DNA of 40,566 bases from the NCBI GenBank assembly GCA_964447495.1, contig CAYUTF010000022.1:1-40566 (forward strand), given 5' to 3'. This stretch comes from an uncultured archaeon (GTDB lineage: Archaea > Asgardarchaeota > Lokiarchaeia > Sigyniarchaeales > SOKP01). This document shows, piece by piece, positions 1 through 39,536 of the stretch; position 1 is the first letter of the stretch; every line of letters starts with the position of its first letter. Under the pieces are notes generated by a model that did no database searches, was not told the DNA's origin, and saw only the letters and a program-made list of their open reading frames with translations. A program made the position numbers and the translations under genes.

Positions 1-2452
1 TCGGTCGAATACGCTTAGAATTTCTTTTATTTATGGGTAAACCATATATTTCACAGAAACCTGTTATTTTTCTCATTCCTAATAAACCTTTCACAAATGT
101 AGATTTACCTGCCCCACTCTCTCCCAAGATTCCTAATATCTCTCCATGTTTTATATTCATGGAAACAGTATCAACAATTAGTTTACTACCAGCAAACACG
201 CTTAAATTCTCGCAATTAATCGCTGGAAAATTCTGAAGATACGAAGGGGAAAGCTTACTTCCTATTCCCAACCTAAGTCTTATTCTCTGAGGTATTGAAA
301 GCCTTTGATAAAGTTTATATAAAATAAATAATACAAGACATCCTGCTTCAATATATAGAATATAGGTAAGAAGCTGATTCCAAGGTTTAAAATCAAACGA
401 TTGTTCATATCGTAATTCTTCCACAATAATAATACCATAGGGAGTATTTCTTAAATCACCACCGAATCCCGGGTTATCTCCAATTCCCCCCGTACTTAGA
501 CTAATACATTCTTTAAACCACAATAATGCTTCTTGAATATTTTCAGGTTGATAGCGATAATCATATAATGCTTTTGATGCTAGATATGAGAAAAGGAAAG
601 TAGAAGGTAACTCAAGATACATACTTATTACGGGTAATAAAGCAAAGCTTCCATCATCACTTTGACTGTTTTTTAAAAATTCAATTGCTGCAATTTTTGA
701 AATAGGTTCTGTATTGAATATTTCATTAAAGATTTCCAGACCATAATAAGTTGAAATGACGTCACTGTAAAAACCAACAACAATAGAAAATCCACCATCT
801 GCATTTTGACAGGTTCTTAGCCAATGGGTTAGATTATTGTTATTAATATAGTCAATAGATTCTAGATTTTTTAGAGAAATTAGTGCCCAATAAGTAGATT
901 CAATTGTCGAAACATTCGTATTTACTAAGTTTAGAAAAACACCATAATATGGTCCAAAAAGAGATAGAAGATAATCTAAATCGTTTCCAACTCGAAAGCC
1001 TCCATCGTCATTTTGAAGACTAATTAGAAATCGAGACAGATCAATAATTTGAGAAGGTGAAAACCACTTTTCAGATAAGGGAAAAAGCATACGATAGAGA
1101 TTGATTGCGCAATAAGTTGAGAAAAGAGTAGCATTCAATCCTGGCTGAGATCCATAACCTCCTTCGTATGAATTATAGCATAAATCTACAAATTTTAAAA
1201 TATTATCTCTTTGGATTTTTTGAGTAAACCCTTCTAAATTATACTCATTTAATCCTAATATACCAAAATAATTAGATTCAATCGTAATTTCACCAAATAA
1301 TGAATTAATTGCCTGAAATTGATGAGTCCAATTATAGTAGTTGGATCGATAGAAGTTAAAATTGAATGGTACTGTAGGAAAGGTTTTTTCTAGAATATCT
1401 AATGATTTCATAGCAGCCCATCCTGAATTAATATCGGATTCAATGTTTATATCTGGCGTTAATCCAAAACCACCATCAGGGCTGCTACAGTTTGCAATGA
1501 AATTTAAAGTATTTGTTTCATTAAAAAGGGGCAGGATTGGAAGGTTTAGAATGTCAATTGAAGCTAATGAATAATAGGTAGAAAGAATATCAGAGGTTTG
1601 CCCAAGGGCAGATGAAAATCCGCCATCCAAATTATAAAGTGAATTAAAATAAGTCCCCAATGCTAATTTATCAAAAATAGAATAACTCATGTTCATACTT
1701 AAGAAAGCTTGAATACCAAAATATGTAGTTTCCGCGGTTTGAACAAAAGAATTATTTGTTAAAAAATAGCCACTGCCAGACCAAGTTGAATTTATGAAAT
1801 TAGAGATATTAGTATTAAGTAGAATATTACCTAATCGTAATTGATATGCAGTATTAATTGCACTGAAGGTTGAGACAATATCTGAGGCGTTTAATAAGGG
1901 AATCGCTTTAAAACCCCACCCTCCACCATTTAATACGGTTAATAAATATTCAATGATCTTCTGAGTTTCATTATGAGCAATTTTCTCTTCAAGATATGTC
2001 TTGTTAGCCAAAAAAATTGTCGATATTGCTTGATAAGTAGATTCTGTATTTCCTAACCCTCCTATGTCTGAATAAGACCCTTCAGAATTTTGTTTCTCAA
2101 ATATGTAGTCAAAAAAAAACCAAGGATTTGCCATTTTTATTTGCACTTCCTTTAAGTAACTTGGGTTTATAATATCTGGAGAGATGATTTCTGCTAAGGA
2201 AAAATTTATTGAATCTATTACCCTAAAATTTGTTTCGATACTGGGTTCAACAAAAAGACCTAAGTCATTTTGGTGAGTTTTGGTGAATTTAACAGCATTT
2301 AATTTAACAAATTCTACGTCTTTCTCACTAATATACGAGATAAACCTAGTATTAACCAAAATGAGAGTGATAATAGGTGTTCCTATTAAAAGGAAAAATA
2401 TTAGCGCATATTTTAATCGATGTTTACTTTTCCTATTTAATTTTATTATTTT
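1..2452 (-). CDS. Membrane-anchored prenyltransferase/squalene-oxidase-repeat (alpha-alpha barrel) protein fused to a C-terminal ABC ATPase domain; 3' end runs off the window
   Basis: Not in the ORF track because it has no stop in the window. I translated it by hand and it is open from 2452 to 2. It has an N-terminal hydrophobic segment (YALIFFLLIGTPIITLILV), repeated Q/CxxDGGF-type motifs (QNSEGSY, YNLDGGF, CSSPDGGFG, QNDDGGF, CQNADGGF, SQSDDGSF), a TM helix (LLTYILYIEAGCLVLLFLY) and then Walker A GESGAGKST at about 98-124. Start codon uncertain. Confidence 0.85.
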
Positions 2453-3502
2453 TCAACACCTTCATTAGATATGAGTTCTTTTCTTTCTTCTTCTTGAATT
2501 CTAATCTGGAAAAATCTTCTAAAACTTGCTAAGTCTCTACTCATAGAATTTACGTTAATCCCCTTTTCTAGCATAAACTGTATTAATTTGGGTAAATTTT
2601 CCTCAAACGACTCCATTAGCACTTCTATTACTTCATTCCCTACTCTTAATACTTTTTTTATTGATGAGAATTCTTTTATTTGGTCAATTTTTGCTTCATT
2701 TAATTTGGTTATTTCAAATCTGGCTACCAATCCTTCACTCGGTAAGGAATTTATTAAATTTTGCGGTGAATCAAATTCTAACATACGGCCTTCCCTCAAA
2801 ATCGCCGTTTTATCACAGATTAAAGCCGCCTCTAAATCGTGAGTGATAATAAACATGGTGGTATTTAGTTTTTGATTCAATTTTTTTAAATAACTTAGAA
2901 TATCATATCTCTTAGACGCATCCACGCCTAAAACTCTATCAGTTTAAATAACTTAATAGTGTAGTCGGCTCGTCTAAGAATAGTACACTTGGTTTATGTA
3001 TAAGTCCAATTGCCATAGATAATCGCTTCTTTTCTCCTCCACTCATGTGCTTTACTTTTTTATTCCAAACATCTTCGGGAATATCTAATATTTTAAACAA
3101 CTCTATAGCTATCTCTCTAGCCTCCTCCTTTGATAAGCCATAGGTAGATGTGAAGACTTCTACGTTAACTAATGGACTGAGATCAAAGTATAAGTTTAAT
3201 AATTCGAGCTGGGGGACGTATCCGATATTGCTTAGTATTCTTGGATGGTTTTTTTTATTAGCAGGTGATAAACCAGTTACTTTTACATCACCATTCCAAT
3301 TTTTCTTTTCTATTTGGCATGTAAGAACACGAACAATTGTAGTTTTACCCGCTCCAGAAATGCCAAACAAGCCAATAATCTCCCCTTCATTCACCGTAAA
3401 TGAAACATTATGTACTATATGATTTTTATCAAATTTAACATTTAAATTGTTTACTTCTACCATTGGTTTATTTAATTTAACACTTTTGTTCATTAGCGCC
3501 AT
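2446..3502 (-). CDS. ABC-2-type exporter ATP-binding protein, 341 aa after removal of a 31-nt intron; join(complement 3502..2961, 2929..2446)
   Basis: ORF 2939-3502 has Walker A GISGAGKTT, signature MSGGEKKR and Walker B LFLDEPTT, then diverges into LLSYLN*. ORF 2446-2925 continues VDASKRYDIL...FIITHD (H-loop). Removing 2930-2960 gives the continuous consensus FLDEPTTGVDAS. Confidence 0.88.
2930..2960 (-). other. Predicted 31-nt BHB (tRNA-endonuclease-type) intron in an mRNA
   Basis: Pre-mRNA: GCC|GACU|AC^A|CUAUU-A-AGUU-AUUUA-AACU-GAUAG|AGUU|UU^A|GGC. It has a 4-bp central helix GACU:AGUU, two 3-nt bulges (ACA, UUA), an exon stem GCC:GGC, and a 9-bp exon-exon inverted repeat (2910-2918 / 2971-2979). 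Confidence 0.85.
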
Positions 3503-9402: not shown

Positions 9403-9918
9403 ATGGCAGATTGGAATGGTATTGCGGATCAAGCATTATTATATTGGCAAGAATTTGTTGCATGGTTCCTTAATATTCCTATTTATGGACAAATGTTAGT
9501 TATTTTTGGTGCTGTAGCGATTCTAGTTCTTACAGGCGTTTTAGTATATTATATACTTAAAGGTGTCGCATATCTGGTTTATTATATATTAAAAGGGGTC
9601 TATTTGCTTTTGAAAGGAATTCTATTAGGAATATACAAACTATTCGAAGAACTATATTATGGAATTTCGGGAAAACCAAAACCAATTAAACAACAAAAGA
9701 AAGTTGAGGTTAGTAATGAGTCCATTGAAGAGCCTCAAAAAGAAAGATCTATAGAACCTGAATTGCTGATGATTAATCCCAATGCTTCCTATTGTAGTGA
9801 ATGCGGAAATCAATTTACAGAAAAAATGCTTCAACAATTATCTGAAAATGGAGTAGTATTTTGTGTGAACTGTGGAAAAGGTTACAAAACTAATCTGATT
9901 GTTGTTGAAAATTATTAA
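9403..9918 (+). CDS. Membrane protein with C-terminal zinc ribbon
   Basis: Hydrophobic N-terminal half with repeated LVYYILKGV; C-terminal CSECG...CVNCG; GGTG Shine-Dalgarno-like sequence upstream; T-run after the stop. Confidence 0.75.
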   Translation: MADWNGIADQALLYWQEFVAWFLNIPIYGQMLVIFGAVAILVLTGVLVYYILKGVAYLVYYILKGVYLLLKGILLGIYKLFEELYYGISGKPKPIKQQKKVEVSNESIEEPQKERSIEPELLMINPNASYCSECGNQFTEKMLQQLSENGVVFCVNCGKGYKTNLIVVENY

Positions 9919-27124: not shown

Positions 27125-28657
27125 TTGAGTTCTCAAATGACGGATTTATTTCAGAAATTAAAAAGAATTGTATCTGATGAATATATCTCTGATAGTATTT
27201 ACATGCGACATGCCTATTCTAGAAATGTCGATCCGGTTTTACAAGGGGTACCTGATTATGTTATCAGACCTAAGGATGAGAAGGAAATCTCGGAAATTTT
27301 AAAGATAGCTAATAAAGAGATTATTCCCGTGATTCCTCGAGGAGGGGGTGACTGCGAATTTGGAGGCAGTAAACCAATAGGGAATAGAGGTATTGTTCTA
27401 GATTTAACACGTATGAATAAAATCATTAATCTGGATCAAGATAATTTAGTAGTTACTGTTGAAGCGGGAATAACATGGTCTAGCTTAAATAATTTCTTAT
27501 CGCAATATGGGTTATATACGGGTTGTTTAGGTCCTGGCTCGGGTTTAACAGCATCTATAGGAGGAGGCTTATCCCATCATTCAGTAGGAGGTGGGGGTGG
27601 TGCTAAATATGGATCATGCTCAAATCAATTAGTATCACTACAAGTTGTTTTACCTACAGGTGAAATCATAGAAACAGGATCTCAAGCGAACAAATATTCC
27701 AAATTTCCTTTTAATCGATTCGGAAATGGTCCTGATTTGGCAGGCTTATTTTGCGGAGATAATGGAATATATGGCGTTAAAACAAAAGTGTCTTTACAAG
27801 TTTTTCCAAAACCCCCATATGCTGCGTATAAAACCTATTTGATGCCTCGAAAGTCAAATGAGATTTCGTCTGCAATATTTACCCAAATTCGAGAGAAGGG
27901 AATAGATGTCTATGATGTCATATTTTTTATGGATCTATTAGTTTCTGTTGGTGTTCAAAACGGCTTTTTCCCAATGTGGGAAAATTTAAAAAGGAAACGT
28001 GGCATTATGTTTTATGTTATTGAAGCTAATTCGGAACAAGAATTAAATGAAAAAGTCAAGCAATTAGATCAGATATTTTTAACTAATAAAACTGAAACGC
28101 TTGGTTTAGAAATTTCAGAGGGCAATATTGGAAAGTGGTTTTATGAAGAACAAGGTCATTGGATGTATGCTCACAATCTATGGGGATTAGTTCCTGGATT
28201 TGAATCATTGGACGCTGAATGTAAAGTTCCTATCGCATCATATCCAAACATTTTAAAAGATTTAGATCAGTGGGATTTTGAGCATAAGGAGGATATGGAG
28301 ACCATTTTAAAAATCGCAGGAATGAGACCTGTAACCGGAAGTGGACCGATAATTTTATTAAAAGGCAATACTGTGGAATTAACCTGTGGATTTACTAGTT
28401 TTAGTAGTTATATTAATGGGGAGTACCATCCTGAGCTTGAAGCATTAAATTTAAAATTATGGAAATCTATATTGGAACGGGTTACGAAACATGGAGCAAT
28501 GTGGTACATGATGGGAGACATTACAAGTCGTTTAATGGTTGACATTGGAGCTTATAACGAAGAATTTTATAACCTCATGAGAAGTATAAAAAAAACCATT
28601 GATCCAAACATGATTTTAAGTAGCGGAAAGTATAATTTCTGGGGTAAACAAGCTTAA
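27125..28657 (+). CDS. FAD-binding oxidoreductase (GlcD/D-lactate dehydrogenase-like, VAO superfamily), paralogue 1
   Basis: P..VIRP, VIPRGGG, VEAGI, ASIGG, KYG, VVLPTGEII, G..GIYG and C-terminal K...DP..IL..GK. Confidence 0.88.
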   Translation: MSSQMTDLFQKLKRIVSDEYISDSIYMRHAYSRNVDPVLQGVPDYVIRPKDEKEISEILKIANKEIIPVIPRGGGDCEFGGSKPIGNRGIVLDLTRMNKIINLDQDNLVVTVEAGITWSSLNNFLSQYGLYTGCLGPGSGLTASIGGGLSHHSVGGGGGAKYGSCSNQLVSLQVVLPTGEIIETGSQANKYSKFPFNRFGNGPDLAGLFCGDNGIYGVKTKVSLQVFPKPPYAAYKTYLMPRKSNEISSAIFTQIREKGIDVYDVIFFMDLLVSVGVQNGFFPMWENLKRKRGIMFYVIEANSEQELNEKVKQLDQIFLTNKTETLGLEISEGNIGKWFYEEQGHWMYAHNLWGLVPGFESLDAECKVPIASYPNILKDLDQWDFEHKEDMETILKIAGMRPVTGSGPIILLKGNTVELTCGFTSFSSYINGEYHPELEALNLKLWKSILERVTKHGAMWYMMGDITSRLMVDIGAYNEEFYNLMRSIKKTIDPNMILSSGKYNFWGKQA

Positions 28658-28773
28658 ACCTAATTTGTATAGAATTTTGACATTAATGAGAAAAAATCTA
28701 TATATATTTGGCGTGAAAATTTAATATAATTAAAAAATTTCATAATTGAGATATTTATAAAATTCTATTAATT

Positions 28774-30294
28774 ATGTCCGAACTCTATCATAAATTAGAA
28801 AAAATTGTCAAAAAGGAACACATTTCAAATGATATCCTTATAAGGCACAGTTATTCTAGAAATGTAGATCTTCTTTTACAAGGTATTCCCGATATCGTTA
28901 TTAGACCTAAAGATGAAATAGAGATTTCTGAAATCCTAAAAGTTGCTAATGAGGAGAATCTTCCCGTTATACCCCGAGGTGGTGGTGATTGCGAATTCGG
29001 TGGGAGTAAACCAATAGGAAATGAAGGAATTGTACTAGATCTAAAACGTTTAAATAAAATTGTTAATCTCGATCGTGATAATTTAGTTGTCACTGTTGAA
29101 GCAGGGATTTCATGGGCTAAATTAAATGAATACTTATGCGATTTTGGACTTTATACGGGTTGTATGGGGCCTGGTTCTGGTATGACTGCCAGCATAGGTG
29201 GAGGGATTTCACATCACTCGGTCGGAGGGGGCGGATGTGCAAAATATGGAGCATGTACTAATCAACTTGTATCGCTCGAAGTTGTTTTACCTACGGGTGA
29301 AATTATAGAGACAGGATCTCAAGCAAATAGATATTCTAAATTTCCATTTAACCGATTTGGAAATGGACCTGATTTAGCAGGATTATTTTGCGGAGATAAT
29401 GGTATATATGGGATTAAAACAAAAGTTACTCTGCAAGTTTTTCCTAGACCAGAGTATGCGGAATATAAATCTTTTCAATTACCTCGAAAAGAACGCCAGA
29501 TTTCCGCAAATATCCTAAACGACATACGTAATAAGGGAATTGATGTCTATGATGCTATGTATATCATGGACTTAATTGTTACTGTTCTTACACAATATGA
29601 ATGCATGCCGATGTGGCAAAATTTAAAGAAAAAAAGAGGAATTCTTTTTTATACAGTGGAAGCAAATTCGGAAAAGGAATTAGAAGAAAAAGTAAAACAA
29701 CTTGATGCTATAATGATGAACAATAAAGCTGAATTATTAGGTTCTGAAATATCTGATGGAAATATTGCAAAATGGCATTACACCGAACAAGGACATTGGC
29801 AATTTTATCATAATTTATGGGGAATCTTTCCCTCTATGCAACCTTTAACTGCTGAATGTTTTACCCCGATCAATCAATATCCCAGTTTGTTAAACGATAT
29901 AGATCAATGGGATATTGAAAACAATGATTTAATGCAAAAAATAATTAGCATTACAAAAACACGTCCAATCACTGGAAGTGGTCCGATATTACTCATTGAT
30001 GGGAATAATGTAGAAATCACCTGTGGCTTTACTAGTTTTTGGAGTGTGTTTGATGGAGAAACGCATAAAGAAATTGATGAAATCAATTTAAAATTATGGA
30101 CATCATTATTAGAAAGAGTGACAAAACATGGAGTTCAGTGGTATATGATGGGTGATTTTATGTCTCGATTAATGGTCGATATTGGTGCTTATAACGAGGA
30201 ATTTTATAACCTAATGACAAATATCAAAAAAACTCTTGATCCAAATATGATTTTAAGTCGAGGTAAATTTAATTTTTGGGGTGAAAAACACTAA
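28774..30294 (+). CDS. FAD-binding oxidoreductase (GlcD-like), paralogue 2
   Basis: Same motifs as 27125-28657; colinear and visibly very similar to it. Confidence 0.88.
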   Translation: MSELYHKLEKIVKKEHISNDILIRHSYSRNVDLLLQGIPDIVIRPKDEIEISEILKVANEENLPVIPRGGGDCEFGGSKPIGNEGIVLDLKRLNKIVNLDRDNLVVTVEAGISWAKLNEYLCDFGLYTGCMGPGSGMTASIGGGISHHSVGGGGCAKYGACTNQLVSLEVVLPTGEIIETGSQANRYSKFPFNRFGNGPDLAGLFCGDNGIYGIKTKVTLQVFPRPEYAEYKSFQLPRKERQISANILNDIRNKGIDVYDAMYIMDLIVTVLTQYECMPMWQNLKKKRGILFYTVEANSEKELEEKVKQLDAIMMNNKAELLGSEISDGNIAKWHYTEQGHWQFYHNLWGIFPSMQPLTAECFTPINQYPSLLNDIDQWDIENNDLMQKIISITKTRPITGSGPILLIDGNNVEITCGFTSFWSVFDGETHKEIDEINLKLWTSLLERVTKHGVQWYMMGDFMSRLMVDIGAYNEEFYNLMTNIKKTLDPNMILSRGKFNFWGEKH

Positions 30295-30410: not shown

Positions 30411-31022
30411 ATGACGAATTATATTGAAGAACACTATATTCATTCAGAATATGATGAAATTTTTAATAATTGGTATGAAATTGAAGGCTTAAGAAAGATA
30501 AGAGAGCTTTCACGCCAACTCCGAACTTTTTTCAATTACAAGGCTGAAGTGATAAGATATCGATTTCATCCCAGTCCCATACTTATCAAAAATTATGTGA
30601 ACACTAAATTTTTTAGTCATAAACAAAAAATCGAATCTTTAGCTAAAGATTTCATTACTTTGCTTAAAAATGTAAAAAAATCAAATCAAACTGTTGAAGA
30701 AGGGATTCACTCTCTTTTTTTTAACAATAATAAAGCAATATTACAAAAACTCTTAGACCTCACAGAGAAATTGTTCATATTAATTCACTATTTATCAGAG
30801 GAGAGCATTTACGATCATCCAAAATTCCTCAAATTTATCATGGTATTGGCACAAAACACTTCATTGGTGAAAAAATGCTTAAATGCACAATTCAGCAAAT
30901 TTTATGAAGAGCTTGAAAAAAACTACAATCGTCTAGAAGGAGAATTGGAGGTTCTTTTAGAAAAAGAACCAACGAAGCCCATAAGATCAAAAACACAACT
31001 TGAGGAGAGATTAACATCATGA
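30411..31022 (+). CDS. Hypothetical helical protein, translationally coupled to the HNH gene
   Basis: 203-aa ORF whose stop overlaps the next start (ATGA at 31019-31022). Confidence 0.65.
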   Translation: MTNYIEEHYIHSEYDEIFNNWYEIEGLRKIRELSRQLRTFFNYKAEVIRYRFHPSPILIKNYVNTKFFSHKQKIESLAKDFITLLKNVKKSNQTVEEGIHSLFFNNNKAILQKLLDLTEKLFILIHYLSEESIYDHPKFLKFIMVLAQNTSLVKKCLNAQFSKFYEELEKNYNRLEGELEVLLEKEPTKPIRSKTQLEERLTS

Positions 31023-33382
31023 AGGTATATACCCCCGTGTCACGGAAAAATATAGGAGAGGATCGAGTGGCAATCTGTCCAAATTTTGGATGCGAATACA
31101 TGACACGAGTTAAACCTCTTAAATTGCGGTTCCTTGGGTTTGGTAAGCAACCTAAATGTAAGAAACATCGCATCCCTTTAGTCTATGTTGATGAGGGGAT
31201 TGTTGATTTTGTGGATGCCGCATTAGCGTGTTTGTTTGATAAAGCAGGACTTCCTCCTCGTGAATTGTTCAAGAGTATTAAAAAACAATTTCCCGATGAA
31301 ATTAACTCATTTATAGAAGGATGGATATATTGTATCACGATTGGAAGAGGCATATCAATAATTTCGCGTTACATGGACACGGTTTCGAATGTATATCTCA
31401 AGCAATTAACCAAAAAACAAATTAAAGCATTGAAGATAAGTAAAAATATTAAACCAAATCTTGTGAACAAAGCGATTAAAGATGGAATGGATGAAATTGC
31501 TATCCAATATGAAAGGATTCTTAAGCATCTGAGAGTCCATTCCGAGATCCTCAATGATCAACAAAAACTTCAGTCACTATCAAAAGGTCTTAGAAAATTC
31601 TTAGAAGAGTGGCAAAAAAATGCGCTTAAACATAATGAGATCATGAATTCAACAGAAATTAAGCGTGATATGACATTATTAGAAATCAAAACTAATTATG
31701 ATCAAATCCTAAACGTTGGAACTTGTCGATGTCTTCTTGGATTTAAATTTGAAAGTAAAGAACAAAAAGAAACAGGCTTAACAGCTTTTGATAGGTTTTC
31801 TGCTTATCATGATTTTTATATTGAAGGATTAACTACGAAATTTACTAAATCTGATATCTCAGCACTTTATTCAGAAAACGTCTTAATTAATAAATTAAAT
31901 AACTCGCCTGAAGAATGCTCTGATAATATGAATGAGGATAAAATTTCCGTAATTAAGAATAAATTAAAGAAAATTGATTGGTCTAAGGTGAGTAATTGTT
32001 GGCAAGTTAGATTTCGAAAAAATCAGTATTCTAATTATAAAATTATTGAATTAGATCCAAATAAGGAATGTTCTCAATGCAACCCCCTATATAAACATAA
32101 AAAATGGGTCAAGCGTGTTTATTATGATACGAGGTTTGATATGACAGATGAAAAATTAGCAGAATTATGTAATATTACTAAACTTACTGCTAATTATTGG
32201 CGTAGATATAAACACGGTATCATAGGAAAAGAGAAATGGGGAAAGGGCCGCTGGATTGATAATAGAAGTGGGAGAATTTATGTCAGAATATCAGATGATT
32301 ATAACCATCCTGAATTGAAAAAGAATCCAAGTAGAAAAAAAACTTATCGTCTTGAACATATCTTTATTATGGAACAATATTTGGCAAATCACCCAGAGTT
32401 AGATATATCTAGAAAGTATTTAATTAAAGGTAAATACCTCAAAATTGAATGTGAAGTACATCATATAAATTTTGATCCCCAAGATAACAAAATAGAAAAT
32501 TTATGGATATATGAAAATAAAAAAGCACATTCAATAGGAGAAAAATCGATAAGAAAAGTTTTTTCTGAGCTAATTATGTTGGGATGTATCTTATTCTCAA
32601 ATGGAAAATATTCTTTAAATCAAAACTTTGATCTTAATTTTCACTCTGATCCAGCACTCAAGGAATTTAAAAATTTTCAACCAATATCTTATCAGAACAT
32701 TAATTTGAATGATATAAAAGAAGTAATTAAAAAAATTAAATGGTATGAAATTTCAAATGATTGGAAAGTAATTAAACGATTCAATCAATTTAAGAATATA
32801 ATTATTGACCTAAATCCATATAAGGATTGCTCTGAAGAAAATCCGTTATATATGCATAAACACTGGTTTTCAAGGATATATAATGATCCAAACTTAAATT
32901 TATCTGATTCAAAAATGGGAAAGATTTGTAAAATCTCCAACGATAAGGCAAGATATTGGAGAGAAAAGATACACCAGATTGAAGGAAAAAAAGAATGGGG
33001 AAAAGACAAATTAATTGACAAATCTGATGGGCGTATTTGGATACGCGTTCCTAAAAGTTATTCAAATCCAGTTGTTAATAAAAAAGATACCCATCGAAGA
33101 ATAATGCTTGAACATAGATATATAATGGAAAAACACTTATCTGCTCATCCTGAATGGGGTATATCAAAAAGAACGCTTGAAAAAGGTAAATATTTGAAAT
33201 CAGATAGTGAAGTTCACCATATAAACCTTAATTATCAGGATAACAGATTAGAAAATCTATGGGTTTTTGAAGCTAATGATGAACATCAAGAAGCAAGAAG
33301 ATCTTTATATAAGCTAGTTGAAAAACTGATGAAATTGGAATTAATAAAATTTGAAAATGGATTTTATAGGTTAAATTATTAG
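31019..33382 (+). CDS. Protein with N-terminal Cys/His Zn-binding domain and two tandem HTH-like plus HNH endonuclease units
   Basis: CPNFGC...CKKH. Unit 1: EHIFIMEQYL...EVHHINFDPQDNKIENL...H. Unit 2: EHRYIMEKHL...EVHHINLNYQDNRLENL...H. Confidence 0.82.
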   Translation: MKVYTPVSRKNIGEDRVAICPNFGCEYMTRVKPLKLRFLGFGKQPKCKKHRIPLVYVDEGIVDFVDAALACLFDKAGLPPRELFKSIKKQFPDEINSFIEGWIYCITIGRGISIISRYMDTVSNVYLKQLTKKQIKALKISKNIKPNLVNKAIKDGMDEIAIQYERILKHLRVHSEILNDQQKLQSLSKGLRKFLEEWQKNALKHNEIMNSTEIKRDMTLLEIKTNYDQILNVGTCRCLLGFKFESKEQKETGLTAFDRFSAYHDFYIEGLTTKFTKSDISALYSENVLINKLNNSPEECSDNMNEDKISVIKNKLKKIDWSKVSNCWQVRFRKNQYSNYKIIELDPNKECSQCNPLYKHKKWVKRVYYDTRFDMTDEKLAELCNITKLTANYWRRYKHGIIGKEKWGKGRWIDNRSGRIYVRISDDYNHPELKKNPSRKKTYRLEHIFIMEQYLANHPELDISRKYLIKGKYLKIECEVHHINFDPQDNKIENLWIYENKKAHSIGEKSIRKVFSELIMLGCILFSNGKYSLNQNFDLNFHSDPALKEFKNFQPISYQNINLNDIKEVIKKIKWYEISNDWKVIKRFNQFKNIIIDLNPYKDCSEENPLYMHKHWFSRIYNDPNLNLSDSKMGKICKISNDKARYWREKIHQIEGKKEWGKDKLIDKSDGRIWIRVPKSYSNPVVNKKDTHRRIMLEHRYIMEKHLSAHPEWGISKRTLEKGKYLKSDSEVHHINLNYQDNRLENLWVFEANDEHQEARRSLYKLVEKLMKLELIKFENGFYRLNY

Positions 33383-33522
33383 AAAATGGTCAAATTTTAG
33401 GTCAAATGTAAAAACAACGATCAATTCAAATTACAATATTTTAAACAACAAAACCTGAAATTTTAAGAATTAGAGAATAGTAACAACATTATTATTTCAA
33501 ACATTATTAATTTTCTAGAAAG

Positions 33523-34789
33523 ATGTTAGAGCTAAAAAACTTAAAAAAGGAATGGCGAGCCATAATGTCCTGTATAGAATTTAGATATTTAATCTAATTC
33601 GCAGATGGGGTGTGGAGATTGTGGCTTCGCCATCCGTCCCGCTGTGGGCAGATATTTAACTTGTCCTGTAAAAGAGGCTAAAGGAGATCAAGGATTTGAG
33701 ATCTATTTTGCTCGAGGGCGTATGAATGTCCTTAAAAGCATCTTAGAAGGGAAAATACCATTAAGTCGAGAACTTGCAGAGTATGTGTATCAATGTTCTG
33801 AATGTGGTAATTGTACTGAAGTTTGTCATCAGAGTCAAAATGAATACATTATCCTTCCTACGAGCAAATGGATTGATCATGTTGAGGTGTGGAATGCATT
33901 AAGAAAAGATTTAGTAGAAGCAGGATTTGCACCTCTGGAAAAACATAGTAAATTGATTGCTTATATGAATAATGAAACCATGAGAAATCCTTATGGTGAA
34001 GATGAAAGTAAAAAATTCGAGTGGATCAAAGAATTTCCAAATATCAAAGAAAAAGCAGATTTGGTATTTTTCGGAGGCTGTACGATGCCATTGCGACAAG
34101 TAAGTACATTAAGAAGCATGATCAAGATTCTTAATGCATCTCAAATAGAATTAGCAATTTCAAAGGATGAATGGTGTTGTGGCTCCATCGCAATTCGCAT
34201 TGGCGATGAGGAATCCGTTAAGAAGAATATAAGACATAATGTTGATATCTATAGTGAAATGGGTGCCAAAACAGTATTTTCTGCATGTGCGGGGTGCTAT
34301 AGAACGTTAAAGAAAGATTATCCAAAAATTCTTGGTGAAGAATTACCCTTTGAGGTGAAACATATCACTGAAATTCTAATTGATTTATTGAAATCAGATA
34401 AAATCCCTTTTAAGGAAGATCAAGGAGAAAAGCAAGTAGTTACATATCATGATCCCTGCCATCTTGGTCGCCATATGAATCTTTATCAAATTCCTCGAGA
34501 GGTTCTTTCTAAAATACCTGGTGTTGAATTAGTGGAAATGAAAAGGAATAAAAAAAATGCTTGGTGTTGTGGTGCTGGTGGAGGAGTTAAAAGTCAATAT
34601 CCAACCTTAGCTTTAGACATTTCAAAAGATCGCATAATGGAAGCGATAAATACTGGCGCAGACATTCTAACTACTAGCTGTCCCTTCTGCATTGGAAATT
34701 TTATAGATGCCTATAATGATCTAGAACCAGAACTCCAAGAAAAGATTACTGTAATCGATATAATAGACTTAATTGCTTCAAAAATCTAA
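33523..34789 (+). CDS. Fe-S oxidoreductase (GlcF/GlpC/HdrD-like, 2x4Fe-4S plus 2xCCG), 411 aa after intron removal; join(33523..33575,33607..34789)
   Basis: Upstream mini-ORF MLELKNLKKEWRAIMSC supplies the first Cys. The spliced product reads SCMGCGDC...CP (CxxCxxC), followed by CSECGNCTEVC, WCCG, CAGC, YHDPCHLGR, CCGAGGG and CPFC. Confidence 0.88.
33576..33606 (+). other. Predicted 31-nt BHB intron in an mRNA
   Basis: Pre-mRNA: UC|CUGU|AU^A|GAAUU-U-AGAU-AUUUA-AUCU-AAUUC|GCAG|AU^G|GG. It has a central helix CUGU:GCAG, 3-nt bulges AUA and AUG, and an exon-exon helix of 33552-33566 with 33618-33633. Confidence 0.85.
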
Positions 34790-35686: not shown

Positions 35687-36604
35687 CTAAATGAAATAGT
35701 TTTCTTTTAGACCTATTTCTCTAAGATAAATTTTATACTTTCCTAATTTTCCGCCATAATTTCCAGCAGAAATCTTAATTAAACCCTCCATATCAATTAT
35801 ACCTTGAATTACTTTTACCATGGTTAATTCAATTGTTTTTATATCAACTGCATTAAACACTATTTCTGGAATTGATTTCACACCTATAGGTACTCTAAAT
35901 TCTTCGGAAGAAATTTTATCTTTCAAAGTTGGACAAAAAGGATGATTTGTCGAGGGTCCAATTTCAGGAAAATTAGTTTCAGGCTTAGAACCCGCAGAAC
36001 ATACATCAAAAGTTGTACAAACATTATCTATCTCTGCAATAATATTAACAGCTTCCCGTCCTACTTTGATGCCATTATTCACAGAATCGCAAAATAACCA
36101 TAAATTTCCTCCCATAACTCCTTTGGAGTAAGATATCTCTTCGTCTATTAAAAAATCATATCCCATCATAATGGGAACTGAAATTAGTTTACGGTTGAAT
36201 TTTGTAATTATCTCTTCATAACCATCTCCACAATGGCCCACATTATTCATCATGTTAAATTTTATCTCGCATTTTTCAGGAAAATAATCAAATACTGCTG
36301 TTGTAGGTACAACAAGAATACCTTGCCTCAATCTTAATCCTAATTGCTCATAAAATTTAGCTCGTGAACTTTTTCCTCCTCCAGTGACCCATAATTGTAC
36401 AATAGCACCAATTCTTCCATCTAAAGTTTCACGTTCAGTAAGCCATTTCACAATTCCCCCTTCGGCATCCCCAAAAACAGTTGATGGAAGAGCTGTAAAA
36501 GAATTTACTGCTCTATATAAAAATTCAGTATCTTGAGCAGTCACCATCAGCTGGACTACAAGACCTTCAAAGGCTTCGCAGTAGGTATCTTCTATGCTGG
36601 TCAT
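35687..36604 (-). CDS. ftr: Formylmethanofuran:tetrahydromethanopterin N-formyltransferase
   Basis: IEDTYCEAF, DGRIG, VPTTAVFD, GDGYE, GVMGGN, SAGSK, STNHPFCPTL, EIVFN and ISAGNYGGKLG motifs. The ATG at 36604 is preceded by GGAG. Confidence 0.92.
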   Translation of the reverse strand: MTSIEDTYCEAFEGLVVQLMVTAQDTEFLYRAVNSFTALPSTVFGDAEGGIVKWLTERETLDGRIGAIVQLWVTGGGKSSRAKFYEQLGLRLRQGILVVPTTAVFDYFPEKCEIKFNMMNNVGHCGDGYEEIITKFNRKLISVPIMMGYDFLIDEEISYSKGVMGGNLWLFCDSVNNGIKVGREAVNIIAEIDNVCTTFDVCSAGSKPETNFPEIGPSTNHPFCPTLKDKISSEEFRVPIGVKSIPEIVFNAVDIKTIELTMVKVIQGIIDMEGLIKISAGNYGGKLGKYKIYLREIGLKENYFI

Positions 36605-36746
36605 ATTTGACTCCTTTATGTCTTCTATTAGATTAATATTATTATTATCCAAATACTTTGATCAAATAAAAATTTAAAATCAAATACTTATTAATAAGTA
36701 ATTAAATACAAATTAACTTAGAAAATTCATAAAAATAGATAAGAAA

Positions 36747-37697: not shown

Positions 37698-39536
37698 TTA
37701 CTCTGTTGAGTGCTCTATATCTTCTCCTTCTTCAGAAATCTTCTCTTCTGGAGGAGAATAATCTCCAATATCAGGAAATATAATCCTTGCGATTTCCCAT
37801 CCTTTTTCTGTTGGATATGAGAGCGCATTTTCAATTAATTTTTCCCCTGATTCATTATTTAATTCTACCTTATGAATTATGGGATTATTATCTAAAATCA
37901 TCTCAAATTTCGCACCGCCACTCCCTGTAGGTACAATCAAGATACCGGCATCTATGGCTTTCTCATCTATAGCATCTTTAATACGTTTTGCAGCATAATA
38001 TCCCGCAACTCCCGCGCTTCTATCAAATGTTTTAATCGATGGAATTTCTAATCCCCATTTTTTACCTTGAGATTCGATTAATGCTGCTAATGTTTGACTT
38101 CTTTTTCCAAGCATAAATTTAAATTCCATCTGAGTATTAAAATCCTTTCCCTTTTCTTCACCAATTTTGATGATCGTTTTCAAAGTTGCTCCTGCTACTG
38201 ATGCTGGATTCACATCAATAACATATTCCTCTTCTGCTAAAATTTCTTCGATTGTCCTTTTAATCATCTCTCGTGGTTTTGAAAAATCGATTACTTCTTC
38301 TTCATCTTGCGTAGGAGGTTTAGCAGTAGCAACAATATCTGCACCTGCTTCCATTAATTCTTCTACGCTCATCTCTTCCATAACCACTTTATCTATAAAT
38401 CTTCTGCAAAGTTTAATTGAATTTCTTGGATTTCCTTGTGTTTTTTCATATATCATTTCAATTAATTTTTCATTTAAAGGAAACAATGGATATAATGGCG
38501 GATTTAAATTATTATCGTCCCAAAAAGTCTCCATGGTTTTTGAGTAAAAAATCTTAAGATCATTTAAACTAAATGGTTTTAATTCTTGTTCTGGCTCCAT
38601 TCGGGAACGTAAAGGTTGATCTGCAATCTCTAATATTCGAGGCCAAATTTCTTTTAGAACTGCTATAATAATGACTAATCCTTTTACTTCATTATATAAT
38701 CGTTTAAGGATTTCAAGAAACTTTCTTTCCGCAACTTCACCAAGCATACGATAGGGCGATTCTAGTTCATCAAAATAAAGGATTAAAACCCTATCTAAAT
38801 TTTCTGTAATGATTTTTATCATAGCAAGGCATACATCATCATCTTCTACCACACTATTAATTCCTAGCTCGCTTAATTCTTCAGTTTCAAGATCTTCTCC
38901 TAATAACCATCTTTCTGCTAATGCTTTTTTGTTTTTATCTAATTGATAGGTGACTAAAGCTTTAACACAATCAGCAAACACACCTGGAAACTCTCTAATT
39001 CCCTTTTGTATTACCTCTTCAATTTTAGGTTTTTGAAATAATCCGGCTTTTTTACCTCCCCATTTTTCAACAACCAACCTCTTTGATACAATATCAAGAA
39101 TTTCGGGACCCACTTCTTCAATAATACATGTATACACGTGAAGTAATACCCGAATACTAGCGGGAGGGCTTGGGACATAGATAATTGTCCAGTCTACAGG
39201 TTCAATTTGACTTACTTCAATCTCTTCTTCTTCAGTAGATTCTTCTAACTTTTTCCTATTTTCACGTTCTTTATCTTTAAATGAATGATATGCATGGGTT
39301 TTTCCGGTTCCCGCAGATCCTAAAATAGGGATGAGTCGTGAGGATCTATCTCGATACGTTTGACGAACCAAACGATACGCTTCACGATCAATATAACTTC
39401 TCGGGCGTGCGATATCAATTCTATCGGGAATATCTCCCCGAGAAACAAAATTAGAGAAAGGAAGGATTGGAGCTTCTCTAAGTACATCTAAATACATTTC
39501 TTTGTCATCGTCACTTAATTCAGAGTATATATTCAT
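37698..39536 (-). CDS. AAA+/P-loop ATPase with C-terminal alpha/beta domain
   Basis: Walker A GSAGTGKT, Walker B LILYFDELE, PLRSR (Arg-finger-like) and GNPR (sensor-2-like). Confidence 0.8.
   Translation of the reverse strand: MNIYSELSDDDKEMYLDVLREAPILPFSNFVSRGDIPDRIDIARPRSYIDREAYRLVRQTYRDRSSRLIPILGSAGTGKTHAYHSFKDKERENRKKLEESTEEEEIEVSQIEPVDWTIIYVPSPPASIRVLLHVYTCIIEEVGPEILDIVSKRLVVEKWGGKKAGLFQKPKIEEVIQKGIREFPGVFADCVKALVTYQLDKNKKALAERWLLGEDLETEELSELGINSVVEDDDVCLAMIKIITENLDRVLILYFDELESPYRMLGEVAERKFLEILKRLYNEVKGLVIIIAVLKEIWPRILEIADQPLRSRMEPEQELKPFSLNDLKIFYSKTMETFWDDNNLNPPLYPLFPLNEKLIEMIYEKTQGNPRNSIKLCRRFIDKVVMEEMSVEELMEAGADIVATAKPPTQDEEEVIDFSKPREMIKRTIEEILAEEEYVIDVNPASVAGATLKTIIKIGEEKGKDFNTQMEFKFMLGKRSQTLAALIESQGKKWGLEIPSIKTFDRSAGVAGYYAAKRIKDAIDEKAIDAGILIVPTGSGGAKFEMILDNNPIIHKVELNNESGEKLIENALSYPTEKGWEIARIIFPDIGDYSPPEEKISEEGEDIEHSTE

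Follow-up and report, generated by a model that had tools for sequence, protein, structure and literature searches.

The DNA considered here, a stretch of 40,566 nucleotides (nt) from a Lokiarchaeia-type archaeon (contig CAYUTF010000022.1, hereafter the window), carries the gene of a HdrD/GlcF-like iron-sulfur (Fe-S) protein that is interrupted by a 31-nt insert at positions 33576–33606 (+). Judged from sequence comparison, this insert is very probably an archaeal bulge-helix-bulge (BHB) intron in the pre-mRNA of the gene. Excision at the bulges gives a product that is colinear with intron-less homologues in 36/36 insert-bearing loci, and the insert sequences diverge while the BHB is kept by compensatory changes.

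The interrupted gene and the fold at its junction

The called open reading frame (ORF) at 33605..34789 (394 amino acids, aa) starts with MGCGDC and is one base out of frame with an upstream ATG at 33523, which opens MLELKNLKKEWRAIMSC and whose frame continues with IEFRYLI and ends at TAA 33595–33597. The initial annotation had described both frames, including the lack of the first cysteine in the called ORF, and its coordinates were found to be correct. The ORF contains two CCG domains (130.8 bits) and a Fer4_8 domain (27.6 bits), the match to the latter beginning at profile position 8, and therefore the beginning of the dicluster domain is absent from the called ORF. In the predicted splice product, MLELKNLKKEWRAIMSC-M-GCGDC, AU and G are joined to a Met codon, and the first cysteine of the Fe-S cluster motif comes from exon 1 alone. 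In 15 full-length orthologues C17, C20, C23, C37, and P38 as well as C81, C84, C87, and C91 are invariant, and in one of the orthologues (P0006) the Fer4_8 match begins at residue 16 with Cys17 inside it. The protein is called HdrD/GlcF-like for its N-terminal ferredoxin-like domain with two cysteine clusters, which is followed by two CCG domains. It should be noted that its NCBIfam matches (TfrB, LdhH, GlpC, and GlcF) are all under the cut-off, and because none of the equivalog cut-offs is reached, no substrate is assigned to it.

The features of the gene and of its junction are:

33523–33575 (+): exon 1, 17 codons (MLELKNLKKEWRAIMSC) plus the AU with which the split Met codon begins; N-termini of 410–411 aa orthologues are colinear with it
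33552–33566 (+): 5′ strand of a long exon-exon helix, pairs with 33618–33633
33568–33569 (+): 5′ strand of the outer helix h, UC of the Ser codon, pairs with GG 33608–33609
33570–33573 (+): 5′ strand of the central 4-bp helix H, CUGU (exon 1), pairs with GCAG 33601–33604
33574–33576 (+): 5′ bulge AUA, predicted cut 33575/33576; bases 1–2 are AU in 36/36 insert-bearing sequences, base 3 is A in 35 and U in 1
33576–33606 (+): intron, 31 nt, with in-frame TAA 33595–33597; absent from 50 distinct orthologues, divergent inserts in 36
33577–33600 (+): intron hairpin h′ with the stems GAAUU/AAUUC and AGAU/AUCU and the loop AUUUA (from folding and its pair list)
33601–33604 (+): 3′ strand of the central helix H, GCAG (intron), pairs with CUGU 33570–33573
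33605–33607 (+): 3′ bulge AUG, predicted cut 33606/33607; base 3 is G in 36/36
33607–34789 (+): exon 2, from the G of the Met codon through GCGDC to the stop, with Fer4_8 and two CCG domains (from the ORF and domain matches)
33618–33633 (+): 3′ strand of the long exon-exon helix, pairs with 33552–33566

At the junction a 4-bp helix thus lies between two 3-nt bulges, and both h and h′ have at least 2 bp, which is the minimum for introns of the hBHBh′ type. The helix CUGU:GCAG with the bulges AUA and AUG had been proposed in the initial annotation and holds base for base, as does the short exon stem UC:GG beside the bulges. The same annotation had pointed to a 15-bp pairing between the exons. 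This helix is present in the window gene, with one G-U pair and one bulged base, and is also part of the minimum free energy (MFE) fold, whereas across the relatives it is only 70% paired and lacks conservation in its middle, and some of the remaining pairing stems from Trp, Ala-Ile, and Asp-Cys-Gly codons that are invariant. The MFE of the 96-nt region is −35.1 kcal/mol as compared to a mean of −21.2 for shuffled sequences (z = −4.56; 0/200 shuffles equal).

Archaeal BHB motifs are cleaved behind the second base of either 3-nt bulge, a rule for which a literature search turned up no printed statement of the exact position; this is the sole register that gives AUG in 36/36 relatives. The cuts predicted in this way yield AU + G = Met and the sequence C-M-G-C-G-D-C, as was initially suggested, and the product is in register with the uninterrupted orthologues. 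Bases 1–2 of the 3′ bulge are variable (AU, AA, UU, AG, UG, UA, CU, or UC). A constant AU at the start and a constant G at the end, both with variable neighbours, is the pattern expected from cuts after the second bulge base.

A strict BHB, defined as a 4-bp helix, two 3-nt bulges, at least 2 outer pairs, and at least 3 inner pairs, is by itself not rare. In a scan of the genome there were 204,839 raw hits, which corresponds to a chance of about 2.5 × 10⁻⁴ per position-and-length combination (204,839 hits/(2 × 3,811,275 positions × 107 lengths)). The BHB register at the window site is fixed independently by the alignment of the orthologues. A self-splicing group I or group II intron was also considered and rejected: the insert has only 31 nt and the core of such introns needs hundreds of bases. 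Across the whole window there was no Rfam match at gathering score, and ARAGORN found no tRNA in the window.

Orthologues, covariation, and constraint on the exons

A protein search revealed many orthologues of 410–411 aa, 70–85% identical, with the N-terminus M[ST]ELKNLKxxWKAIMSCMGCGDC, which equals exon 1 + Met + exon 2 in register. In the sources they are named (Fe-S)-binding protein or HdrD and assigned to Promethearchaeota or Lokiarchaeota archaea. The junctions were read in genomes of the same genus and in 80 metagenome contigs. Of the 127 loci, 10 were without the site (mostly because the contigs were cut) and 2 outside the exon 1 pattern; merging of identical junctions left 87 distinct ones. 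Uninterrupted, with TGY ATG GGN TGY, were 50 of the 87, a single insert of 29–34 nt was found in 28, and 8 had inserts of 56–61 nt; the junction of one distant homologue (L126) was mis-parsed and reads as uninterrupted. The proportions among the metagenome contigs are biased because CMGCGDC, one of the two patterns used for searching the metagenomes, favours intron-less genes. Within the genus the orthologue is present in 33/42 genomes, with an insert in 11, without one in 17, and unreadable in 5. The initial annotation had named orthologues starting at MGCGDC as the finding that would speak against an intron; what was found are 50 distinct orthologues that read W-x-x-x-x-S-C-M-G-C-G-D-C through the site.

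All 36 inserts sit between AT and G of one and the same Met codon. Their lengths cover all three classes modulo 3 and most of them contain stops, and therefore neither read-through nor a single frameshift accounts for them. Public records mis-annotate the intron systematically: gene callers mis-start the intron-bearing genes, and the products therefore seem to lack a cluster cysteine. In public protein clusters, 36 of the best 120 are 403 aa or shorter; the N-terminus is probably missing from these, some of which may be partial proteins, and the short clusters inspected begin with LGCGDC, MQKGCGDC, MQMGCGDC, or MNCGDC, called from inside the intron or from its end. One genome of the genus (G046) has two copies of the orthologue (on C79 and C48), one with a 31-nt insert (L022) and the other with an open frame of 413 aa, in which the match starts from residue 16, like the two-unit type described below.

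Covariation was assessed in the alignment of the 28 single-unit sequences (A2). Since the exon borders fix the columns, the test of the helix is free of alignment choices. All 4 pairs of the central helix are formed in 26/28 inserts (98.2% of the cells paired), although the first pair varies between UA (10), UG (7), GU (6), CG (2), and GC (1), with a mismatch in 2. Natural variants of the helix include UUGC:GCAA, GUGU:GCGC, and GUGU:AUAU. The outer helix h is 96.4% paired and h′ 89.9%, with double (compensatory) changes in each of the five basal pairs of h′. For the whole structure, 80.3% of the cells are paired as compared to 73.6% in shuffles (0/500 as high) and 29–55% in slid registers; the covariation score is 0.276 versus 0.143 (0/500 shuffles as high), and two-sided changes occur in 9 pairs and 59 cells versus 20.1 in shuffles (0/500 as high).

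The exons bear the marks of a translated sequence in which RNA pairing also matters. Exon 1 is free of stops and has a start codon in 35/35 intron-bearing genes (ATG in 34, TTG in 1), the gene L079, which is cut by a contig end, being excluded from these counts. Its diversity at codon positions one, two, and three is 0.223/0.041/0.343 in intron-bearing and 0.29/0.08/0.373 in intron-less genes, the second position being the most conserved, and this coding pattern argues that exon 1 is translated. In 25/36 insert-bearing loci, moreover, the stretch from the last stop to exon 2 holds no start codon in frame (ATG, GTG, or TTG). The AUG at 33605 is thus particular to the bulge in the window genome and does not represent a general start. 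The Ser codon before the cysteine is TCN in 35/35 intron-bearing genes, whereas the 50 intron-less ones have TCN (21), AGY (28), or ACT (1). Pairing with GG in exon 2 is possible for UC only. The median energy of the exon-exon duplex is −19.5 kcal/mol in the 35 intron-bearing versus −9.6 kcal/mol in the 50 intron-less genes, and that of the window gene (−28.5 kcal/mol) is the strongest of the 85 orthologues. In 13 phylogenetically independent pairs whose members differ in intron state, a duplex of −15 kcal/mol or better is found with the intron by 11.5 to 0 (p ~0.0005 in a sign test), and TCN by 6.4 to 0 (p ~0.016). The outer helix is made of coding sequence, and synonymous sites therefore bear a structural constraint.

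The inserts of 56–61 nt (L014, L041, L085, L004, L071, L073, L077, and L079) consist of two units. In these 8 distinct loci the first unit ends with GCAG-AAA, which is followed by a second hairpin and by CUGN-NNG. The GCAG can pair either with the end of exon 1 or with CUGN (4 bp with CUGC or CUGU, 3 bp with CUGA), and the AAA serves both as 3′ bulge of the first BHB and as 5′ bulge of the second. By sequence, the second hairpins fall into three kinds, two of which differ by a compensatory change, and one locus (L072) carries the first unit without the second. The second unit thus has the look of an intron that entered the first one at its 3′ cut.

Splicing enzymes and alternative explanations

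In the proposed mechanism, the terminal CUGU of exon 1 would pair in the transcript with the GCAG just before the 3′ bulge, so that the central helix would be framed by the two 3-nt bulges, the intron hairpin, and the exon-exon pairing. EndA would then cut each bulge after the second base, and RtcB would ligate the exons and probably circularise the intron. The joined AU|G codon would fuse the 17 N-terminal codons, including that for the first cysteine of the CxxCxxC...CP motif, to the rest of the gene. The enzymes are present: the window genome (G000) encodes two EndA paralogues (PF01974; 104.2 and 68.6 bits; contigs C196 and C3) of about 200 aa each and one RtcB (561.2 bits; contig C15). One EndA paralogue matches the C-terminal repeat of fused enzymes and the other the N-terminal repeat, and a Tyr/His/Lys pattern, which we take to be that of the catalytic residues of EndA, is found only in the former. 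This pair fits the (αβ)2 EndA, with an L1 loop for broad specificity, that is reported for Asgard archaea (PMC5829648), and the two paralogues probably form an enzyme of this type.

There are other ways in which the gene could be read. The insertion could be inert and have decapitated the gene, in which case only the ORF from ATG 33605 would be translated, into a protein that lacks the first cysteine of the cluster, and exon 1 would be a relic. Indeed, this ATG exists, and gene callers annotate proteins of 393–397 aa that start at or near GCGDC. But a relic would not be expected to have remained intact, with a start codon and the substitution pattern of a coding sequence, in all 35 relatives in which it can be judged, 25/36 relatives are without a usable start codon before exon 2, and Cys17 is invariant in the full-length orthologues. 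An inert insertion would also neither keep its BHB via compensatory changes nor recruit matching codons in the exons, and we consider it improbable. Less credible still is that the RNA stays unspliced and that the gap is skipped in translation by programmed ribosomal bypassing or frameshifting of the T4 gene 60 type, as might be thought from the hairpin within the gap and from the stop a few codons past the take-off region. Ribosomal bypassing requires matched take-off and landing codons; such codons are lacking in the 36 sequences, in which UGU/AUA precede the gap and AUG, AAG, UUG, AGG, UGG, UAG, CUG, or UCG end it. Moreover, gaps of 29–61 nt in all modulo-3 classes, a covarying helix that links the end of exon 1 to the end of the insert exactly in the BHB register, and two-unit inserts that build a second BHB speak against bypassing.

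That the insert is an artefact of assembly or sequencing, or a recent strain-specific mutation by which a pseudogene is in the making, was considered for the reason that the window belongs to a metagenome-assembled genome of 223 contigs. The insert is, however, unchanged in the contigs of 4/4 DNA runs, one of which may be the source sample of the window, positions 33478–33731 being without differences, indels, or a joined form. The protein P0003, which has 95% identity to the window ORF, shows the same truncated start, and inserts are found at the same codon in 11 of the 28 readable genomes of the genus and in many metagenome contigs. The probability left for this explanation is negligible.

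Some findings weigh against splicing of a BHB intron and have to be set beside those in its favour. For the naked RNA, the computed energy of the BHB conformer is −27.2 kcal/mol, which is 7.9 kcal/mol less stable than the MFE fold (−35.1 kcal/mol), and the outer helix adjoining the bulges has only 2 bp, after which comes an internal loop. The first pair of the central helix is mismatched in 2/28 single-unit and in 5/8 two-unit relatives. In this genome the 3′ bulge is AUG, so that exon 2 alone is formally translatable. The association of exon pairing with the intron could in part be due to linkage, should recombination exchange the N-terminal segment as a whole, and the 13 pairs would then be less independent. 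Finally, in the crude genome-wide scan, BHB sites that rescue a frame numbered 3007 at the true cuts and 2898–3043 at cuts displaced by 1–2 bases.

A second predicted intron, possible turnover, and known systems

The window contains a second 31-nt BHB intron, which came to light in the genome scan. It lies on the reverse strand in the gene of an ABC-transporter ATPase:

3502..2961 (−): exon 1 of the ABC-transporter ATPase gene
2930–2960 (−): intron, 31 nt, just after Walker B DEPT
2929..2446 (−): exon 2

The insert sits between the called ORFs 3502..2939 and 2925..2446 (−). The central helix is GACU:AGUU and the bulges are ACA and UUA; in the insert-bearing orthologues the helix is AACU:AGUU, GACU:AGUU, or AACU:GGUU. 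The predicted splice product DEPT-T-GVDASKR is read uninterrupted in 18 orthologues of the genus, an insert being present in 6/24, and alignments to 22 paralogues cross the junction.

The scan from which this intron emerged gave otherwise little. Adding energy thresholds for the exon duplex and the hairpin resulted in no clear excess in any length bin; at 26–37 nt with a closed hairpin there were 9 hits as compared to 8–13 for decoys. In a test of the junctions against paralogues, 107 hits were obtained versus 103–120 for decoys, and with stricter rules 21 versus 17–20; repeat proteins aside, this test singled out the ABC gene only. Many spurious BHB-like hits came from the 15-nt periodic repeats of an APSRL repeat-protein gene (G000 C16, ~9460–9610 (+)). 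Two further hits, in an actin-like gene (C3) and in a gene of contig C96, were rejected as false, both genes having intact ordinary starts. From the lack of an excess over the decoys it follows that mRNA introns are not common in this genome, in which only the two introns of the window are convincing. Protein-gene BHB introns thus seem to be rare here, as far as can be told from a scan for strict motifs that break the frame, which is blind to relaxed motifs, to in-frame introns free of stops, and to single-copy genes, and which sets no upper bound.

As to the neighbourhood of the Fe-S gene, two FAD_binding_4 oxidase genes precede it. The FAD-linked oxidase genes (27125–30294) are separated from the Fe-S gene by a 203-aa ORF without Pfam match and a 787-aa ORF with an HNH_3 endonuclease motif and internally duplicated architecture (30411–33382 (+)), whereas many relatives have about 10 nt between the end of the oxidase gene and the start of the Fe-S gene. 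The two ORFs may represent the insertion of a mobile or defence element. Further downstream are a gene for formylmethanofuran-tetrahydromethanopterin formyltransferase (FTR + FTR_C; 35687–36652 (−)) and a 612-aa ORF with a weak match to the BrxC/BrxD ATPase (37698–39536 (−)).

How the introns came to be so patchily distributed was considered with a maximum-likelihood tree, quickly built from those 80 of the 85 proteins that have 300 aa or more. The intron state needs at least 21 changes on this tree, 13 of them forced by well-supported branches, which is barely below the number for shuffled labels. When the inserts were sorted into types by single linkage, 22/36 were chained into one group, and the 11 type changes on the tree were no different from shuffles (mean 12.6), so that this sorting carries no information. 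Near-identical host genes differ both in intron state and in insert sequence, and in three lineages another BHB unit, unrelated to the first, sits precisely at the 3′ cut of the latter. One might think, tentatively, that the BHB micro-introns in protein genes of Lokiarchaeia are a turning-over population, regained repeatedly at existing splice sites, rather than relics of one insertion; this could occur, for instance, by a reversed EndA/RtcB reaction plus reverse transcription or by allelic exchange. Such a turnover is hinted at by the at least 13 well-supported gains or losses, the divergent inserts in near-identical hosts, the nested units, and the second 31-nt intron 30 kb away. We nevertheless hold it to be unlikely. 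Against it are that there is no further genomic copy of the window intron in G000, that the second unit is without extra copies in G018, G045, and G004 (single-copy in G018 and G045), and that the scan gave no genome-wide excess of BHB sites.

The system that comes closest is the BHB intron in the gene cbf5 (pseudouridine synthase) of Desulfurococcales and Sulfolobales, which is reported to have 16–44 bp, to be present in a lineage-specific manner, and to be mis-annotated (PMC2738675; PMC5829648). A literature search, with subscription journals and supplementary files outside it, found among BHB introns in protein genes only that of crenarchaeal cbf5 (PMC2738675; reference lists of PMC5829648 and PMC12397907) and for Asgard archaea only tRNA introns (bioRxiv 10.64898/2026.10.13.758758; PMC11291895). 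The cbf5 intron is like the window intron a short insert in a protein gene with a BHB-like fold that includes the exon borders and serves as substrate of EndA. The hosts differ, being here a HdrD/GlcF-like Fe-S protein and an ABC ATPase, and so does the lineage, which is Lokiarchaeia-type Asgard. The window intron lies 17 codons into its gene, within a cluster-binding motif, and two-unit tandem or nested forms occur in relatives. For cbf5 about two losses have been inferred, as compared to at least 13 well-supported changes among the 80 sequences here, which is far patchier. And cbf5 splicing has been shown experimentally, whereas the window intron is known from the comparison of sequences.

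The BHB introns of archaeal tRNAs, described as abundant and often non-canonical in Asgard archaea, have the same motif and presumably the same EndA/RtcB machinery (bioRxiv 10.64898/2026.10.13.758758; PMC11291895). Their substrate is tRNA, whereas that in the window is an mRNA whose outer helix comes from coding sequence. In the case of HAC1/XBP1, too, a small mRNA intron is removed without the spliceosome, a tRNA ligase (RtcB in animals) seals the exons, and the frame changes; there Ire1 acts on stem-loops in a regulated stress response, while EndA acting on a BHB is predicted for the window (PMC4090602). With the HdrD/GlcF/GlpC-type CCG proteins, the window protein shares Fer4_8 and two CCG domains, its scores being below the equivalog cut-offs.

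The cbf5 intron, first reported in 2002, is in the literature found the sole established protein-gene intron that is spliced by EndA. The window adds two more predicted host genes, which belong to those archaea that stand nearest to eukaryotes. A mutational test of the fold exists already in the form of dozens of natural variants, and the patchiness, the nested double form, and the RNA-shaped synonymous sites make these genes a tractable system for the study of intron gain and loss.

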